Positions 1,084 through 13,259 of a stretch of DNA of 64,000 nucleotides are shown in pieces. Source of the DNA: a virus; IMG/VR virus record IMGVR_UViG_3300036791_001907, positions 64,001 through 128,000 of that record, one strand, 5' to 3'. The notes below the pieces were generated by a model. That model had not been told where the DNA came from. It did no database searches and saw only the letters and a list, made by a program, of their open reading frames with translations. Both the position numbers and the translations under genes were made by a program. Each line of letters opens with the position of its first letter. The first letter of the stretch is position 1.

Positions 1084-1624
1084 CAGGCAGGGCAAGCCCT
1101 GTCACGTCGCGGTGCGGCATGTCCCGGCAGCGTAGGCTTGGTCAGATACGCGAAGTCCTGGTACGCCGCGGCCGGCACAGGTTAGCTGCGGCCAGGCAGC
1201 ATAGGCTCGTCCCAGCAAAGGCAGGTCGCGACAGGGCTGGCCGCGGTTCGGCAGCATTGGCTGGGAAAGCCCAGCCCAGGTTCGCCGCGCCACGCAGGGC
1301 TTCGGCGGGGCGGGGCAGTCAAGGATCGGCATGGCGTGTCTAGCCACGGTCCGTCATGGCGAGTCGTGCTGCGGCAGCGGCGGAGAGCCGAGCCGTGGTG
1401 GCAACTGGTGGGCCAAGCTACGTTGTGGCGACGCCGGATAGGTATGGCATGCCCCGGACTGCCATGGCGAGTCATGGCGGGCCATGGCGAGCCGTGGCCG
1501 CGAAGGAGTGGCCGCCCGGCGTTCGTCCGGCGTTGGTTGGTCTAGGTAGGGACGCGTCAGCCGGGGCAGTCATGGTTTGGCGCGGCTTGCCTGGTCGTGC
1601 CACGGCAAGCGATGCCAGGGATGG

Positions 1625-1667
1625 GCAGCAAAAAACCCATGGTCACGGGTATATGTGACGGTGATGG
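1625..1667 (+). repeat. Pseudoknot motif copy 4
   Basis: GCAGCAAAAA-ACCC-ATG-GTCAC-GGGT-ATAT-GTGAC-GGTGATGG. Confidence 0.9.
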
Positions 1668-1936
1668 TGCGGCAGCTCGGCCCTGCCATGATGGGGCATG
1701 TCGAGCCGCGGCCAGCAGCGCAATGGTAGCGCTGGTGTTCCCAAGCTTGGCCTGGGTAAGTCAAGCGCTGGCCAGCCGGGGCAGCGAAGGTGAGGCTAGA
1801 TCTATCGAGCCTAGCGCTGTCATGTGCTGGTGAGCCGGGGTGAGCCTCGGTACGGTATCGCCGCTCTGGCGGCGTTAGTCGTGACATCGAAAGCTGTGGT
1901 ATGCCGAGTCGAGGTCAGACAGCAGAGGAGGTGTGA

Positions 1937-2152
1937 ATGATCGGACCCAAGTGCGAGTGCCGAAAGCCGACCTTTCCGTCTGAAGACGAACAGTCCTGGC
2001 TGTGCATGAACCCGGAGTGTGCGGGCTTCCAGCAGGTCTACTGCGAGTTGACGCCGGCAGACCTGGCGCTCATCGCCAAGCTGAAGGCGCTGGCCAATGG
2101 CCACTGGCAGCGTGTTGCAAAAACCCGAAAACTCCGCGGTACCAGGAAGTGA
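1937..2152 (+). CDS. Small Cys-rich hypothetical protein inserted inside the array
   Basis: Strong RBS (AGGAGGTG) before the ATG; CxC...CxxxxC; pentamer periodicity is absent over this interval. Confidence 0.65.
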   Translation: MIGPKCECRKPTFPSEDEQSWLCMNPECAGFQQVYCELTPADLALIAKLKALANGHWQRVAKTRKLRGTRK

Positions 2153-2225
2153 TGAACGGTTCGGCAGCCGCGGTGAGGTGCGACCGGGTTCGTCCAGCGA
2201 TGGCGGACCTTGGTGTGGCATCACA

Positions 2226-2265
2226 GCAGTAAACCTATGGCCACAGGTATAAGTGGCGGTGATGG
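2226..2265 (+). repeat. Pseudoknot motif copy 5
   Basis: GCAGTAA-ACCT-ATG-GCCAC-AGGT-ATAA-GTGGC-GGTGATGG. Confidence 0.9.
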
Positions 2266-2729
2266 AATGGCAGCATCGGACGGGCTCGGACGGGCCATGA
2301 CGGGCCGGGTTAGCTGTGCCGCGTCAAGGCAGTACTGGCTAGGTTTTTCAGGGCATGCTCTGGTGCGCCTGGTCACGGCCGTCTAGGTGAGGAGTCGCGT
2401 GCAGCGGCTTGCCACGGCCAGTTCTGTCGAGGCAAGCCGAGGCCGTCAAGGTGCGGCCAGGCAAGTAATGCAGGGATCGGGCTGGCTATGGTCCGGCCGC
2501 AATGGCAAGGTTAGTTGCGGCTGGTACCGGCGGGGCGAGCCCTGCTGTGGTATGGCCGTAACGGTAGTCCGCGGAGCGCCATGGACGGCCCCGCTCAGGC
2601 TGGCCAAGGTCGGCCGAGGCAGTCTTGCAAGGGATCGTCCAGCCTGGTTGTGCCATGGCCAGGCAGGGGAGCAGAGGTGTGTTCTGGCACCCTGTGATCT
2701 GGCCGGCCAAGTCACGGCAAGGCCGGGCA

Positions 2730-2769
2730 GCAGTAAACCCATGGTCGCGGGTATATGCGACGGTGATGG
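2730..2769 (+). repeat. Pseudoknot motif copy 6
   Basis: GCAGTAA-ACCC-ATG-GTCGC-GGGT-ATAT-GCGAC-GGTGATGG. Confidence 0.9.
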
Positions 2770-3122
2770 AAGGGCAGCCGTGGACAGCAGGGTTATGATG
2801 CGCTGCGCAAGGGCTGGTCCTGGCAGGCCAAGGATCGGCAGGAGAGCACAGGTCCGGTCTGCATAGTAGTGGCGAGACCTACCATGTCGAGCCGGGTTTC
2901 GGCAGCAATGCGAAGGTGAGCCTTGCCGGGGCGGCCGTAGCTGTGGCAGTGTAGTCGAGTCGTGGCAAGCCTAGTCCGGCATAGTTGGGCTCTGGTCCGG
3001 TCCGGCAGCAGAAGTGTGTCTTGGTCCGCCGCGTCGCGACGCGGTGGGATCCGGCAGTAATGGTGCGGCTAGTCATGGCGCCGCGAGCCGCGCTGTGTCA
3101 TGTCATGATCTGGCTAGGCCGG

Positions 3123-3165
3123 ACAGCAAAAAACCGATGGCCAGCGGTATATCTGGTGGTGACGG
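3123..3165 (+). repeat. Pseudoknot motif copy 7
   Basis: ACAGCAAAAA-ACCG-ATG-GCCAG-CGGT-ATAT-CTGGT-GGTGACGG. Confidence 0.9.
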
Positions 3166-3474
3166 GAAGCATCGGCAGCGACGGCAAGCCGTGGTGTGGT
3201 ATGCCCGGCTCCGCCAAGCTACGGCAGCAGTGGGCAGGCTGGGCAGGTTTTGCTCCGTCGTGTCGAGTGTTGGTAAGGCAGCCATGGTGTGGCCCGGCGC
3301 GTCATGTCGCGTCGTCCTTTGCGCCGGCATGGCGTGGCCGCTGTGGCAAGACACCCTTAGTCATGATGGGGCCGGGCGGGCACCTGTTTGCTGCGCCGAG
3401 TCGTGGCAGTGACGCAGTGGTGTGTTGTGCCCCGGCCTGCCCCGGCGAGTCCTGTCATCGTGGGCAGCGCTGAG

Positions 3475-8395: not shown

Positions 8396-10321
8396 TTATG
8401 GCGTGCTGAAGTAGCCGCGCTCGGCGCGCGCATCCTCGTCGGTCCAGCCGATCTCGGCGTTGCCGGCGGCGCGCACCTGCTCCGGCGTGAGCCGGTAGCC
8501 GGCGCCGGCGGCGAAGTTGGGCCAGGCGTCGTTGGCGTGCCAGAGGGTGGCGCAGCCCAGGTTCACGGCCTGGGCGAAGTCGTCGGTGAAGCCGGTGGCG
8601 CGCTTGATCAGGTAGATGTCACCTGCATGGGTGCCCGGTCGCTTCTCGTCGACTAAGGCCAGGAAGTCCTCGATCAGGCCCGCCACGCCGTCGTACTTGA
8701 AGAACCGGATCAGCTTCAGCTTGATCGACGAGGTCACGTAGATCAGGCTGCGGGTCTTGTCCAGCGAGTGCCGCGTCCGCTGGTGCTGGGGCGTGGCCGG
8801 GTGAAAGGTCATCAGCGAGTGCGTCGCCGACCGGACATACTGAATGGGCATGATCCGGGAGATCGGCACGCCGGCCTGGGTCAGGAATGTCTCCCTGAGA
8901 ATTCCCGCCCCGGTGTAGTCATGCGCAACGAGGTCGGGCTGGAACAGCTGGAAGTAGTGGAAGATCTCCTCGGCCTCATGAATGTGTTCGTGTGGGTTCA
9001 GAAGGCGGCGGCCCCAGAGCACGTCGATCCGGCCGTCGGTGCGCAGTCCGAGCAGGGCCACCACCGTGAACGACACGCCATCTTCACCGCCGCCGCCCCA
9101 GTCGATCCCCAGCACGGTCATCCGGTAGTTGCGCAGCCGCGCCATGACTTCCGGCCGCGGGTCCAGGGGGCGGTTCTCCCAGGGCAGCTCGGCCGCTTCC
9201 TGGAGGTCGGGCAAGGTGACCAGCTGGTTGCCCGTGGCCGACGACTCTCCCAGAACTTCATTGATAAACACATGCGGCGCCGTGTTGGCGGCGCCGTCGC
9301 GCTTCAGGAGCAGCTCGGCCCACTTCTTGCGCACCGCATAGTGCAGGGGCATGATCGGCTGGGGCACGTGCAGCCCCAGCCGCTCCCACCGCCGCTCCGG
9401 GTGGCGGTGCACCCAGCGGCCGTAGCGGGGATTGATCGGCTTCCGGCAGCGATGGCAGATGGTCCCCGGGCTGGCCTCGGAGATGTCGTCGTGCAGCGGA
9501 CCGAGCATTGCCTCCAGGTGGAACTCGAGGCTGGCGATGTTCCAGGCGCCGCAGCTGAAGCAGGGGGTGAACCACTCACCCCGGCTCGACCGCATCCATT
9601 CCCCGTGAATAAAGTTGTCCAGCGTCTTGGGGGTGCCGGTGACCTGGGTGATCCCGTACTCCTTCGAGGCCGACATGGTTTCCCGGATGATCGGGATATG
9701 ATCGGGGTCCATGTCCTGCGCTTCGTCGATCCCCACCTTCCCGGCCGGAATGCCGCGGACGCGGTCGACGTCCAGCAGTGCGAATGAGAAGAACATCCGG
9801 CTGCCGTTGTGGAACGTGCGCAGGAGCACGTTGCCGGTGGTCTCGGTGGAGACCCAGAGGTCACGGACCGGCGACTGCTTGATGAAGGCGCCTACATATT
9901 CCGTGGAGAACCGGCGGATCTGCTCGTAGCGGGGGGTCACAAACAGGGTCGAGAAGTGGGGGATCGCATTGGCCAGGGCCACGCCGTGGCTGGCCATCGA
10001 CGTCGACTTCGAGACCTGCCGCCCGGTGATCATCACCACATTGGTGGGCATCCGCACCCGGAAGAGCGGACTGAACGGGAAGTAGTCGTGGAGGCTGTAG
10101 GGCTTACCGTTCAGGTTGAACAGCAGCGGCAGGAGCGGCTCGAGCGTCTGGACCGAGCCCAGTTCGCAGAGCTTGCGGACCGAGATGATCCGGTCGACGT
10201 CCGAGATCGCGCGGCCTTCCTGCTCGGCCCGTTCCAGGTCGGCCAGGATCGCGCCGGTCTCCTTGAGCCGGCGCTCGGCGAGCAACTGATCCTTGCCTGG
10301 TGTCTTGAGCGCAACGGACAT
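8396..10321 (-). CDS. terL: Terminase large subunit (gpA-like)
   Basis: Walker A-like ITGRQVSKST, Walker B VGIDEAQD, motif III VTGTPKT, CxxC pairs, nuclease motif LGIDWGGG and C-terminal DDFAQA; GGAGG RBS. Confidence 0.88.
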   Translation of the reverse strand: MSVALKTPGKDQLLAERRLKETGAILADLERAEQEGRAISDVDRIISVRKLCELGSVQTLEPLLPLLFNLNGKPYSLHDYFPFSPLFRVRMPTNVVMITGRQVSKSTSMASHGVALANAIPHFSTLFVTPRYEQIRRFSTEYVGAFIKQSPVRDLWVSTETTGNVLLRTFHNGSRMFFSFALLDVDRVRGIPAGKVGIDEAQDMDPDHIPIIRETMSASKEYGITQVTGTPKTLDNFIHGEWMRSSRGEWFTPCFSCGAWNIASLEFHLEAMLGPLHDDISEASPGTICHRCRKPINPRYGRWVHRHPERRWERLGLHVPQPIMPLHYAVRKKWAELLLKRDGAANTAPHVFINEVLGESSATGNQLVTLPDLQEAAELPWENRPLDPRPEVMARLRNYRMTVLGIDWGGGGEDGVSFTVVALLGLRTDGRIDVLWGRRLLNPHEHIHEAEEIFHYFQLFQPDLVAHDYTGAGILRETFLTQAGVPISRIMPIQYVRSATHSLMTFHPATPQHQRTRHSLDKTRSLIYVTSSIKLKLIRFFKYDGVAGLIEDFLALVDEKRPGTHAGDIYLIKRATGFTDDFAQAVNLGCATLWHANDAWPNFAAGAGYRLTPEQVRAAGNAEIGWTDEDARAERGYFSTP

Positions 10322-10424
10322 CGTGTTCCTCCATGAACGGCGCTGTGCGCCCGGAGCCACGGGTCCGATCCTACAATGGCGTGTGTGGCCAATACAATGT
10401 CAGCAACCAACTTAGGAGCGATCC

Positions 10425-10979
10425 ATGGAGCGACCCACACTCAAACGCGGCCTCGATCCGGCCGTCGTACTCTGGAACCCCAAGTACGTCCATAACCTGG
10501 CCGGCGCCATCCGGGCGGCCTCATGCTTCGGCGTTCCCCAGGTCTGGTGGACCGGCCGCCGGCTCGATGATGCGCTGTACTCGGTCGACCGGCTCCCCCG
10601 CGAGGAGCGGATGAAGGGTTATCGCGACGTCGCCTGGGGTCATACCTTCAGGCCGCTTGATCACTTCGACCGGGTAACCCCGGTGGCCGTGGAGAAGCGG
10701 GACCGGGCCGAATGTCTTACCGACTTCATCCACCCCGAGCGGGCCGTGTATCTTTTTGGCCCTGAGGACGGCTCGCTCCCCAAGGGACTGCTCCATGCCT
10801 GTCACCGCTTCGTCTGGATCCCCAGCGAGCAGTGCCTGAACCTGGCGGCCGCGGTCAATGTCGTCCTCTGTCACCGCCGGATCAGCCGCCAGCTTGCGGG
10901 TCTGGAGCCGCGGATCACCCTGGCCGAGACCCGCGGCTACGCCTCCACCATTGATGTCGCTGGCTGGGACGGCCGCTAG
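10425..10979 (+). CDS. SpoU/TrmH-family (SPOUT) RNA methyltransferase
   Basis: NPKYVHNLAGAIRAASCFG, YLFGPEDGSL, CLNLAAAVNVVL. Confidence 0.88.
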   Translation: MERPTLKRGLDPAVVLWNPKYVHNLAGAIRAASCFGVPQVWWTGRRLDDALYSVDRLPREERMKGYRDVAWGHTFRPLDHFDRVTPVAVEKRDRAECLTDFIHPERAVYLFGPEDGSLPKGLLHACHRFVWIPSEQCLNLAAAVNVVLCHRRISRQLAGLEPRITLAETRGYASTIDVAGWDGR

Positions 10980-11011
10980 GCCGCCACCAAACCTGCGGGA
11001 GGATAGACGCA

Positions 11012-11182
11012 ATGAAAACGGATCGACGGATGCTCCGCGGCGTGATCGAACGGGTCCGCGCCGCCGTGCCGAATGTGACCCGTGAGCGCCTGGCCGACAA
11101 GTTGCAGGAGCACTTCGATGCTGCCACCATTGCGGTCGAGCTGGACCTGGCCTTCGGCCCGCCCTGCGGACGGAAAGGGTGA
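11012..11182 (+). CDS. Small hypothetical protein (56 aa, not in the ORF track)
   Basis: GGAGG RBS, ATG 11012, MKTDRRMLRGVIERVRAAVPNVTRERLADKL... Confidence 0.55.
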   Translation: MKTDRRMLRGVIERVRAAVPNVTRERLADKLQEHFDAATIAVELDLAFGPPCGRKG

Positions 11183-11259
11183 GATCGCCTGTATGGCCAG
11201 CTGGCCGCCGGCGGTCTGCCGGGTTACATCGAATATCTCGAGGCAATTCGCCGGAGGAC

Positions 11260-11466
11260 ATGATGGCCAAGCCGAGGACCTACAAGGTCGCCGTCTACTG
11301 GCGCGACGACGAGCGGATCTGGCACCACCACGGCACCTGGGAGGGTGAGGCGAACAGTCCGGCCGACGCCAGGACGCGGGCGCTCAATGCGCTCGAGGAC
11401 GAGCGCATCGAAAGCTGGAAGGCCGAGATCATCGGCAGCAAACCAACCGGGAGTCCCAAGTCATGA
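11260..11466 (+). CDS. Hypothetical protein
   Basis: GGAGG RBS; translationally coupled to the next gene. Confidence 0.6.
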   Translation: MMAKPRTYKVAVYWRDDERIWHHHGTWEGEANSPADARTRALNALEDERIESWKAEIIGSKPTGSPKS

Positions 11467-11804
11467 GTGAGGACAACATGGTCATCTTTGATCAGCGCAC
11501 CGGTACCGTGGTGGCCGATCCCCTGTGGGCCCCTTCGGTCCATGCCGGTCGTATTCTCCCCGACGGCCGCTGTCTACGGCTCATGGCGATGACCTACGGC
11601 AAGGTCCGGCTGACCCTCTCGGCGTCGCTGGACGCGTACGACTATCTCGACGGCTGGTGATACGACGGCATTCCCGCCGCGGTCGCGGCGCTCAACACCT
11701 GGGATCCGGCTGTGGATCCCGAGCCTTCAGGCTGGTACCGCAACCCCCTCTCGGGCCGCCGTCGGCCCGACGGCGACGCGTCCCGGGAATACGTGTGCTA
11801 CTAG
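11463..11804 (+). CDS. Probable selenoprotein (in-frame UGA at 11658-11660)
   Basis: Frame continues YLDGW*YDGIPAAVAALNTWDPAVDPEPSGWYRNPLSGRRRPDGDASREYVCY to TAG 11802-11804; SECIS-like hairpin just downstream of the UGA. Confidence 0.7.
11675..11690 (+). promoter_or_regulatory. Bacterial SECIS-like hairpin
   Basis: CGCCGC-GGTC-GCGGCG; apical loop GGUC starts 20 nt after the UGA. Confidence 0.65.
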
Positions 11805-11840
11805 GTGTCAGACATCGAAACCGAACCCGCGAGGTCAGCA

Positions 11841-12269
11841 ATGTCCAATACCGTGCGCACGACCATTTCGGTCCCACGGGCGCTCAAGGCACGGATGGAT
11901 GCCTATGAGCCGCCCATCAACTGGTCGGCGGTCGCCTGCCGCGCCTTCGAGGCGATCATCGGCATCGATGGTCCGCCCGGTTCCGATGCCGACATGACGA
12001 TCATCGAGCCGCATCCAGACGGCCATGGGGTTCGCCTGCTCGACCACGAGGATACGACTGAACTCCGGCGCAACATCGACGCTGGCCGGATCGTGGCGAT
12101 CTATGCCGGTGCCGTGGGCGACAACGTAGCTTTCGTACTCTGCACCAGTGCCGCATCGCTGCGCCAGTTCTTCGATGCTGCCATTGAAGCCGATTGCACT
12201 TACACGATCGAGGGTTGGAGCCGCGAGCCGTTGACTCTGAAGCCAGGCCAGCCCCACAATGACGCCTGA
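11841..12269 (+). CDS. Ribbon-helix-helix domain protein
   Basis: N-terminal RTTISVPRALKARMD...INWSAVACRAFE. Confidence 0.6.
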   Translation: MSNTVRTTISVPRALKARMDAYEPPINWSAVACRAFEAIIGIDGPPGSDADMTIIEPHPDGHGVRLLDHEDTTELRRNIDAGRIVAIYAGAVGDNVAFVLCTSAASLRQFFDAAIEADCTYTIEGWSREPLTLKPGQPHNDA

Positions 12270-12284
12270 CCGCGGAGACTGATC

Positions 12285-12524
12285 ATGGGATACCCCACAA
12301 CGCGATCGGCAGCGCTGTACCTTGAACGGGTGGGGATCTTCCCCACCCTGAGGCAGCCGGTGCCGTCGGCCTCGCCGGACTTGAACCCGATCCATTCCTA
12401 CCCGCTCGTGCCGCCGCCCCATCCCTGGCCGTTCCTGATCCAGTACATCAATGGGTGTCCAGCGCCTGATCGTGGCCAGAGCGATATCTGGCCGTGGGGC
12501 GAGGCCGGCGAGCTGCCGCCATGA
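12285..12524 (+). CDS. Hypothetical protein
   Basis: Fits operon packing. Confidence 0.5.
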   Translation: MGYPTTRSAALYLERVGIFPTLRQPVPSASPDLNPIHSYPLVPPPHPWPFLIQYINGCPAPDRGQSDIWPWGEAGELPP

Positions 12525-12898
12525 CCGGATCCGACCTGTTGCTCAACGTCGTGCTGCTCCCGCTGGCCACCGGAGCGGTCGTGGACATCTGGCTCAACGG
12601 CGCGCTCTTCGCCGGCTGGCGGGCCCGGATCGAGGCCCGGGAAAACAGGCTCTCCGAGTTCCTGGGCTGTAGCCTCTGCCTGAACTATCAGGTGCCCATC
12701 TGGCTCACGCTGGGCTGCTGGGCGCTGCCCATGTACGTCCCCCACTGGGCGGCGCTGGTTCTCCGTGGCATCCTGATCGCACTGGCCACAGGCCGGCTGG
12801 CGTGGCTGATCAACGCCTGGCTCGGCCCCGACTACGGCTACGACCGGGAGAGTCACGACCATGACGACGACGACGACGACGACGAAAAAGACGCTTGA
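12521..12898 (+). CDS. DUF1360-like membrane protein
   Basis: TM segments, LSEFLGCSLCLNY motif, acidic tail. Confidence 0.6.
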   Translation: MTGSDLLLNVVLLPLATGAVVDIWLNGALFAGWRARIEARENRLSEFLGCSLCLNYQVPIWLTLGCWALPMYVPHWAALVLRGILIALATGRLAWLINAWLGPDYGYDRESHDHDDDDDDDEKDA

Positions 12899-13259
12899 CA
12901 TCGCGATCCGCGAGCGCGTCGAGGCCGAGGCCCGGGCGATCATGGCCGATCACCCCGAGGTCGAGGCCATCGGCGTGATGTTCCTGTCCAAGTACTTAAC
13001 CGGCATCCTGTCGGCCATGATCGTCAACGCCGACGGCAAGCCGCTCCGGCCCGATCAGAACGTGCGGCTCTTTGAAGTCTGGGTGCGGGTCGGGATGCAG
13101 CTGATGGCCAACAGCCAGCGCGACGTCCAGTTCCTCGACCAGATGCTCGCCGACTATGCCAGGAGGTTTGTCGATGCCAAGACGGCGGCGGAAGCGGGCC
13201 AGCAGCAACGGGCAGGACCGCCTGGAGCTGATGGACAGCATCGAGACGCTGAGCCTTGA
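12861..13259 (+). CDS. Hypothetical protein
   Basis: ORF in operon. Confidence 0.55.
   Translation: MTTTTTTTKKTLDIAIRERVEAEARAIMADHPEVEAIGVMFLSKYLTGILSAMIVNADGKPLRPDQNVRLFEVWVRVGMQLMANSQRDVQFLDQMLADYARRFVDAKTAAEAGQQQRAGPPGADGQHRDAEP

Follow-up and report, generated by a model that had tools for sequence, protein, structure and literature searches.

The closest described counterparts of the locus analysed here are the bacterial selenoprotein genes whose SECIS element lies within the open reading frame, with Escherichia coli fdhF as the prototype, in which, as at this locus, a UGA codon stands at the position of the homologs' cysteine and a stem-loop follows downstream within the coding sequence. 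The E. coli fdhF SECIS is a 17-nt element that starts 11 nt after the UGA, with a bulged U17 and with G23 and U24 in its loop (PMC8659212), and the broader bacterial consensus comprises an upper stem of 4–16 bp, an apical loop of 3–9 nt with a G in the first two loop positions, a UGA-to-loop distance of 16–37 nt and a minimum free energy (MFE) of −7.5 kcal/mol or lower (PMC13188914). BSepDB catalogues 111 bacterial selenoprotein families (PMC13326102), and among viruses a 2021 review of recoding covers only the poxvirus selenoproteins (PMC8310308), namely the glutathione peroxidase homologs of molluscum contagiosum and fowlpox viruses (PMC8310308). The words phage and virus are absent from both a 2026 review of the prokaryotic selenoproteome and the BSepDB paper (PMC13188914, PMC13326102). 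An earlier, sequence-only reading of the present DNA had remarked that phage selenoproteins are rarely described, and the literature that we searched indeed contains no description of a phage or bacteriophage selenoprotein. In the A1 protein of phage Q-beta, an in-frame UGA is read through in a fraction of translation events with insertion of tryptophan, and the extension forms an added domain.

The gene in question is carried by a 161-kb IMG/VR record (IMGVR_UViG_3300036791_001907) that is classed as a provirus and represents a large uncultured soil phage of 65% G+C; the window, i.e. the whole stretch of DNA that was analysed, covers 64,000 nt of it. The parent contig is 227.7 kb long, with roughly 66 kb of DNA flanking the record. 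As listed, the open reading frame (ORF) from ATG 11463 encodes 65 amino acids and ends at TGA 11658–11660, with the frame past this codon open for 47 further codons up to TAG 11802–11804 and a junction peptide of D-G-W-*-Y. Reading the TGA as selenocysteine (U) yields a 113-residue product. We hold with good confidence that positions 11463–11804 encode a 113-aa phage protein with selenocysteine at residue 66, a reading in which selenium incorporation, SelB binding and host competence are inferred, and that the UGA at 11658–11660 is almost certainly decoded. The features on which the argument rests are as follows.

11463–11804, plus strand: proposed recoded gene of 113 codons plus TAG, with the UGA as codon 66 (from the ORF list and from homologs that align across both halves).
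11658–11660, plus strand: in-frame UGA, the proposed selenocysteine codon U66 (aligned with the TGC or TGT cysteine codon of most homologs).
11675–11690, plus strand: SECIS-like hairpin, with a stem of 11675–11680 and 11685–11690 and a GGUC loop at 11681–11684 (from energy, consensus fit and covariation).
11661–11801, plus strand: 47 C-terminal codons, whose translation requires decoding of the UGA (from codon-position divergence and the family motif).
11802–11804, plus strand: true stop codon TAG (from the reading of the ORF).

The gene starts in a tight arrangement with its neighbours. The sequence GGGAG at 11449–11453, located 9 nt 5′ of ATG 11463, is likely its ribosome-binding site, and the start codon shares bases with the TGA at 11464–11466 (ATGA) that terminates the upstream gene, so that TGA serves as a normal stop here. 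The next listed ORF begins at GTG 11805; ATG 11841, preceded by GAGG at a distance of 7 nt, is more likely to be the start of that gene and agrees with a 142-aa gene call. The layout proposed from the letters alone, with its TGA at 11658–11660, 47 further codons and the next listed ORF at 11805, is thus borne out by the ORF listing. On the other side, the large terminase gene (8396–10360, minus strand) lies beside the run of small genes, and a gene resembling SpoU-family RNA methyltransferases (10425–10979; Pfam PF00588, E = 2e-12) sits between the two. Farther downstream, GAC/ACG triplet repeats at 12850–12900 encode poly-Asp at the end of ORF 12494–12898 and, in another frame, the initial poly-Thr stretch of ORF 12861–13259, which overlaps it.

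Gene callers terminate the gene at the TGA, and this is the simplest argument for taking the codon as a true stop, which would leave either a truncated 65-aa protein or a pseudogene with a decaying downstream part, as might be the case if the phage had moved to a host unable to insert selenocysteine. Such a reading is helped by the fact that the signal within this single genome does not exceed chance (see below) and that the selenocysteine competence of the host is not established. We nevertheless consider it very unlikely. A stop at 11660 would create a gap of 180 nt before ATG 11841, unusual among the tightly packed small genes of the operon; the 47 downstream codons are intact and carry the most conserved motif of the whole family, EPxGWxRxPxxGRRRPxGD..EY; the hairpin behind the UGA is perfect, with 6/6 pairs and a GGUC loop; and the domain predicted by structural modelling would be cut in the middle. 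A separate Logan assembly (SRR11833939), possibly from the same sample, carries a gene call for the identical 65-aa truncated product, and the TGA is therefore not peculiar to one assembler.

Most of what speaks for decoding comes from relatives of the protein. Among isolate phages, tblastn retrieved Caulobacter jumbo phages and Sinorhizobium phage Phosso, with alignments that span the junction and show DRWCY or DRYCF at the UGA position; Cys-form genes of the culturable Caulobacter Bertelyvirus were among the matches. The family motif that the sequence-only reading had put forward is real: phage homologs read DRWCY or DRYCF, followed by EPxGWxRHPxxGRRR. Protein and locus searches added approximately 55 more family loci, and a family profile matches 1,603 clusters in a library of 1.84 billion proteins, the homologs being mostly phage proteins of about 90–130 amino acids. 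No family in Pfam, NCBIfam or PHROGs corresponds to the window protein or to the 44 aligned TGA-type members taken together. At the aligned codon, TGC or TGT is found in 39 of the 42 non-TGA loci scored, and cysteine occupies the position in about 110 of 149 best representatives; it is therefore cysteine and not tryptophan that homologs have opposite the UGA, the outcome on which the selenoprotein proposal had been made to depend. Sampling with a pattern blind to the key codon yielded four further members with an in-frame stop, in every case a TGA at the cysteine codon and in every case with a hairpin at equal distance.

The position tolerates other residues as well. A sister clade has Asp or Glu in place of the selenocysteine or cysteine, and rare members have Trp, Gly or Arg, which indicates that the family does not universally require a redox centre at this residue. 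Individual members whose codon is TGG (Trp), GGA (Gly) or CGA (Arg), each one step away from TGA, retain a perfect 6-bp GGUC hairpin (L320, 301–618; L321, 153–464; L322, 301–627) and, judged by codon and hairpin alone, look like recent escapes from the UGA state that still carry a relic SECIS. A tree of 226 members separates a nearly all-cysteine half from one with a mixture of U, C, D and E, and its well-supported branches require the U state to have changed at least twice; the tree is poorly resolved because only 97 columns are usable.

We then quantified the occurrence of TGA at this and at neighbouring codons with a series of matched scans of IMG/VR, in which one codon at a time was varied within an otherwise constant pattern (W-X-[Y/F], a 45–66-nt gap and a [D/E]P..GW.R[N/H]P block). 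TGA at the cysteine codon was matched in 45 contigs and TGY in 72, i.e. about 4 in 10 IMG/VR family members use UGA under the matched motif. Conversely, no contig had TGA at the adjacent conserved Trp codon, where it would be a single transition from TGG, and none had it at the Trp codon of GW. This contrast weighs directly against a true stop, as nonsense decay should strike other codons too, and the count is 0 TGA codons at conserved Trp positions against 45 here. With the same TGA pattern, a metagenome scan found at least 120 further contigs, mostly from soil and groundwater, and 117 distinct TGA-type sequences were assembled in total among the matches listed. One metagenome-assembled genome (MAG) also carries a TGA-type copy (L057). 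An isolated nonsense mutation had been named in advance as a finding that would undo the proposal; in view of the recurrence in 45 IMG/VR and at least 120 metagenome contigs, the TGA is anything but isolated.

The same counts bear on the two most trivial explanations, a sequencing or assembly error and a genome-wide reassignment of TGA (code 4 or 25), which have nothing in their favour beyond the bare in-frame TGA and which we regard as effectively refuted, with a residual likelihood that is practically negligible. The second, separate assembly has the same TGA, as do more than 100 diverged sequences, and TGA terminates not only the upstream gene but also the family genes themselves, being the final stop in 29/46 of them and in 42/69 of a second set. 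Since the same genes terminate in TGA, the codon is not reassigned, and one TGA per gene is decoded. The sequence-only reading had argued against genome-wide recoding from the use of TGA as a normal stop by other genes, and the terminators of the family genes agree with this.

Sequence evolution behind the UGA follows the pattern of a translated frame. The conserved C-terminal motif is in frame after the TGA in all 47 sequences of the first set, and mean pairwise divergence downstream amounts to 0.27, 0.21 and 0.64 at codon positions 1, 2 and 3 (46 TGA-type genes), so that third positions diverge about 2.5 times as much as first and second ones. The other two frames are interrupted by a stop in 34 and 36 of 47 TGA-type sequences. 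As deduced from these substitution patterns, the region downstream of the UGA is under coding selection, and the part after the TGA, whose lack of conservation would have counted against a selenoprotein, is conserved as protein. A random nonsense mutation or pseudogene was rejected on the combined grounds of the downstream constraint, the absence of TGA at conserved Trp codons and a linked hairpin specific to TGA forms.

In the window itself, that hairpin consists of a 5′ arm CGCCGC, a GGTC loop and a 3′ arm GCGGCG at 11675–11690. The perfect hairpin with fitting spacing that had been pointed out in the sequence-only reading is accordingly present, and with 6 bp, a GGUC loop, a distance of 20 nt after the UGA and an energy of −10.8 kcal/mol it meets all four limits of the bacterial SECIS consensus. 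The likeness to E. coli fdhF that had been invoked alongside it stands only in part. The GGUC loop does match and is the only feature shared; the stem found here has no bulge and starts 14 nt after the UGA, and its G-U lies at nt 25–26, which places the loop 2 nt farther from the UGA than G23/U24. A strict E. coli fdhF-type SECIS was therefore discarded as a description of the element, given the missing bulged U and the shift of 2–3 nt, and a transcription terminator was discarded because no U-tract follows the hairpin.

Taken on its own, this single sequence would not suffice. Across the six frames of the 161-kb record, 850 TGAs are flanked by a comparable open frame, and hairpins of this kind follow 0.2% of positions, so that approximately 1.8 coincidences are expected and one was seen; the combination of hairpin and open frame in this genome is thus within chance, and the case rests on comparative evidence. 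The scan of the whole record returned no second UGA-plus-hairpin candidate besides the 11463–11804 gene. The MFE fold of the 71-nt region 11650–11720 is unremarkable (z = −1.08) and leaves the hairpin out, and an Rfam E-value scan of 11000–12300 gave no SECIS family and just two chance-level hits. A further perfect hairpin of 8 bp is located within the coding sequence at 11701–11720, 10 nt past the SECIS-like one (the GGGAUCCG / GCUG / UGGAUCCC region).

The comparative evidence at the RNA level is considerably stronger. In a gapless alignment of 47 TGA-type sequences, numbered from the U of the UGA, a 6-bp helix forms between nt 18–23 and nt 28–33, with 87.9% of the helix cells paired. The first pair of synonymous third-codon positions is CG in 13 sequences, GC in 13, UA in 5, UG in 4, AU in 3 and GU in 2, the second is GC in 18, CG in 11 and AU in 3 with others in the remainder, and every one of the six standard pair types is represented at these third-codon positions. 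Covariation reaches a score of 0.465 as compared with 0.217 for shuffles, 0 of 500 of which reach it, and with at most 0.19 for slid partners. The loop reads GGUC in most TGA forms and AGUU in a minority, so that its flanking bases co-vary as well, around a G-U at nt 25–26 that is found in 106/117 TGA forms. Two registers of the hairpin occur at one and the same place in the TGA-type genes (L200–L279 and L073–L117; alignment columns 25–39): a main one, GCN-GCG-GUC-GCN-GCN, with an NGUN tetraloop, and a rarer one, GCC-GUG-CGC (GCN-GUG-CGN), with a GUG loop of 3 or 5 nt, which explains most of the exceptions.

The element, moreover, distinguishes the two forms of the gene. TGA forms have 5.28 of 6 pairs and matched Cys forms 2.8 to 3.05 of 6 (p = 3e-11 and 3e-12, the latter values of 3.05 and 3e-12 coming from a comparison set of n = 65); no Cys form has a GGUC loop, and the folds of Cys forms are weaker. 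A strict bacterial SECIS filter is passed by 86/117 TGA forms as opposed to 8/65 Cys forms (p = 5e-16), which leaves about a quarter of the TGA forms failing it, with a spacing of 20 nt in 77 of those that pass. The compensatory changes in TGA forms and the absence of the element from Cys forms show that the hairpin is selected at the RNA level and is specific to the former, in line with the conservation that the sequence-only reading would have required of it. In the hairpin region UGA forms encode AAVAA or AAVVA and Cys forms an xAKAA-like peptide, and the alignments indicate that it is the RNA-level constraint that dictates the peptide sequence there.

A UGA at the relatives' cysteine position and a co-varying hairpin in more than 100 relatives make a selenium-containing protein the most likely outcome. 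The proposal of a phage-encoded selenoprotein thus draws support from the cysteine alignment, the downstream conservation, the recurrence of the TGA and the covariation of the hairpin, with selenium incorporation itself remaining an inference.

The conserved downstream frame and the conserved hairpin would be explained equally well by a programmed UGA read-through without selenocysteine, in which a near-cognate Trp or Cys tRNA or a suppressor tRNA decodes the codon, the hairpin acting merely by slowing the ribosome or by obstructing release factor 2. The RNA phage Q-beta is an established case of leaky UGA read-through, and two database relatives have Trp (TGG) with the hairpin intact. Several observations nonetheless render this explanation unlikely, if still the one to be kept most in mind. 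The homologs overwhelmingly have Cys, not Trp; the loop is conserved together with the stem, above all in its G-U at nt 25–26, and conservation of loop sequence and not of the stem alone points to a sequence-specific binder such as SelB; and the loop matches that of a bona fide fdhA SECIS in one linked genome. As to a suppressor, a search with the tRNA-Sec model left 34/46 TGA-type phage records without any tRNA-like match whatsoever, and no tRNA with a UCA anticodon was present in the five tRNA loci scanned.

Under the preferred reading, that of selenocysteine insertion, the phage would provide cis signals only, i.e. the UGA and the SECIS, and would depend on a selenocysteine-competent host for selA, selB, selC and selD. 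During infection, host SelB carrying Sec-tRNA(Sec) would bind the hairpin at 11675–11690, with the G-U exposed in the GGUC loop, and would thereby deliver selenocysteine to the ribosome paused at UGA 11658–11660, allowing translation to proceed to TAG 11802–11804; ribosomes that fail to recode would release a 65-aa fragment devoid of half of the domain. We detected no selA, selB, selD, tRNA-Sec or indeed any tRNA gene in the 161-kb record, and neither a tRNA-Sec above the gathering score nor selD in 43–46 TGA-type phage records. The best sub-threshold matches to the tRNA-Sec model proved, where checked, to be tRNA-Tyr, tRNA-Ser and tRNA-Cys genes, i.e. ordinary long-arm tRNAs.

A link to a host is available in one case. 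The TGA-type copy L057 lies in the Planctomycetota MAG, which has selA (488 bits), selB (363 bits) and tRNA-Sec (71 bits) and whose own fdhA gene (L326; G001:C59, minus strand, about 1159–3195) contains an in-frame TGA in the context CAAT*HAP, followed 18 nt downstream by a 7-bp hairpin with a GGUCU loop and with G-U at nt 23–24, as in E. coli fdhF. Apart from those for a tape measure protein and a DNA methylase, the genes of the 81-kb contig with L057 (G001:C42 1–80000; L124–L127) are unknowns, and no recognisable bacterial genes were found among them. Judged from this content, the contig may represent not an integrated prophage but the genome of a phage that was binned with its host. As the contig looks entirely viral, the link to a Planctomycetota host, the only one available, depends on binning and is weak. 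No family members were found in 400 other Planctomycetota genomes. Among the hosts of Cys-type prophages selB is present in 2/4, and no clean host correlation emerges from five genomes. For the window phage, host inference was unsuccessful, the isolate relatives of its terminase being only about 28% identical and from unrelated hosts, and the ends of the record bear no recognisable bacterial genes.

The cis signals alone cannot tell selenocysteine from cysteine delivered by the same route, with a tRNA(Sec)-like tRNA that carries Cys, and cysteine is the common residue of the family. Such tRNAs have been described in some bacteria. We assign this SelB- and SECIS-dependent cysteine insertion only a very slight chance of being correct, smaller than that of a true stop, for this route is seldom encountered in nature, none of the phage records searched yielded an above-threshold match to the tRNA-Sec model, and selA, whose product synthesises Sec-tRNA, is present in the linked genome.

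Returning to the protein with selenocysteine at residue 66, an AlphaFold model derived from 44 TGA-type relatives predicts one compact domain (pLDDT 83, pTM 0.76) formed by a small beta sheet, then one helix and then a basic C-terminal segment. U66 is placed at the end of strand 63–68, just before helix 69–79, and the Sec/Cys residue adjoins an invariant Trp. No fold match to the model rose above noise, be it by Foldseek against PDB and BFVD or by VIA-align against approximately 48,000 chains (best Z 4.9). A profile search of the PDB gave weak matches only, to five sequences of two MBT-repeat proteins (MBTD1 and L3MBTL2; E = 0.1–2), which cover profile positions 9–50, the strands that end in DDxWC, and may reflect either a distant relationship with Tudor/MBT-like barrels or a coincidental motif. 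Genomic context is similarly mute: across 89 loci there is no informative synteny among conserved neighbours, just a recurring small uncharacterised protein in 11 loci. That Sec, Cys, Asp and Glu alternate at a single position is suggestive of a nucleophile or of a residue that binds a ligand, and our best guess is that residue 66 is the reactive nucleophile or ligand-binding residue of an accessory protein, rather than part of a classical two-cysteine redox motif.

Extending the argument from the single gene to its relatives, we propose that soil and groundwater phages harbour a large, phage-specific selenoprotein family, in which selenocysteine is built into an accessory protein by means of borrowed host SelB machinery; we consider this probable, with slightly less confidence than we attach to the gene itself. 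If true, the more than 100 UGA-bearing members would show phages exploiting the recoding machinery of their hosts and would offer a new selenoprotein fold for biochemistry. The UGA form would mark phages that are restricted to selenocysteine-competent hosts and thus provide a clue to host range from sequence alone, and the UGA could serve as a switch, with full-length protein made only when the selenium pathway of the host is active. The family also exposes a blind spot in annotation, as gene callers truncate such genes and the database holds the 65-aa fragment, and the peptide difference between its UGA forms (AAVAA) and its Cys forms (xAKAA) is a visible trace of RNA-level constraints shaping a protein.

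Set against the systems described so far, the family behaves in part like a bacterial one: as in many bacterial selenoprotein families, Sec and Cys forms are interleaved on the family tree. Unlike bacterial selenoprotein genes, its carriers are phages in which no selA, selB, selC or selD was found, and the family itself is absent from Pfam, NCBIfam and PHROGs. The Q-beta A1 gene shares an in-frame phage UGA; here the UGA lies in the middle of a domain, at a position aligned with Cys, and a SelB-type hairpin comes after it. In Q-beta, by comparison, the residue inserted is Trp. Poxvirus selenoproteins are likewise virus-encoded and rely wholly on the selenocysteine machinery of the host, and the fowlpox SECIS is also located in the coding region (PMC8310308). 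They differ in that they belong to eukaryotic viruses with a eukaryotic type of SECIS and stem from cell-captured genes of known function, whereas the present family looks phage-specific. The mechanism is thus a known one, and what is new is its carrier, the bacteriophages, together with a large protein family.
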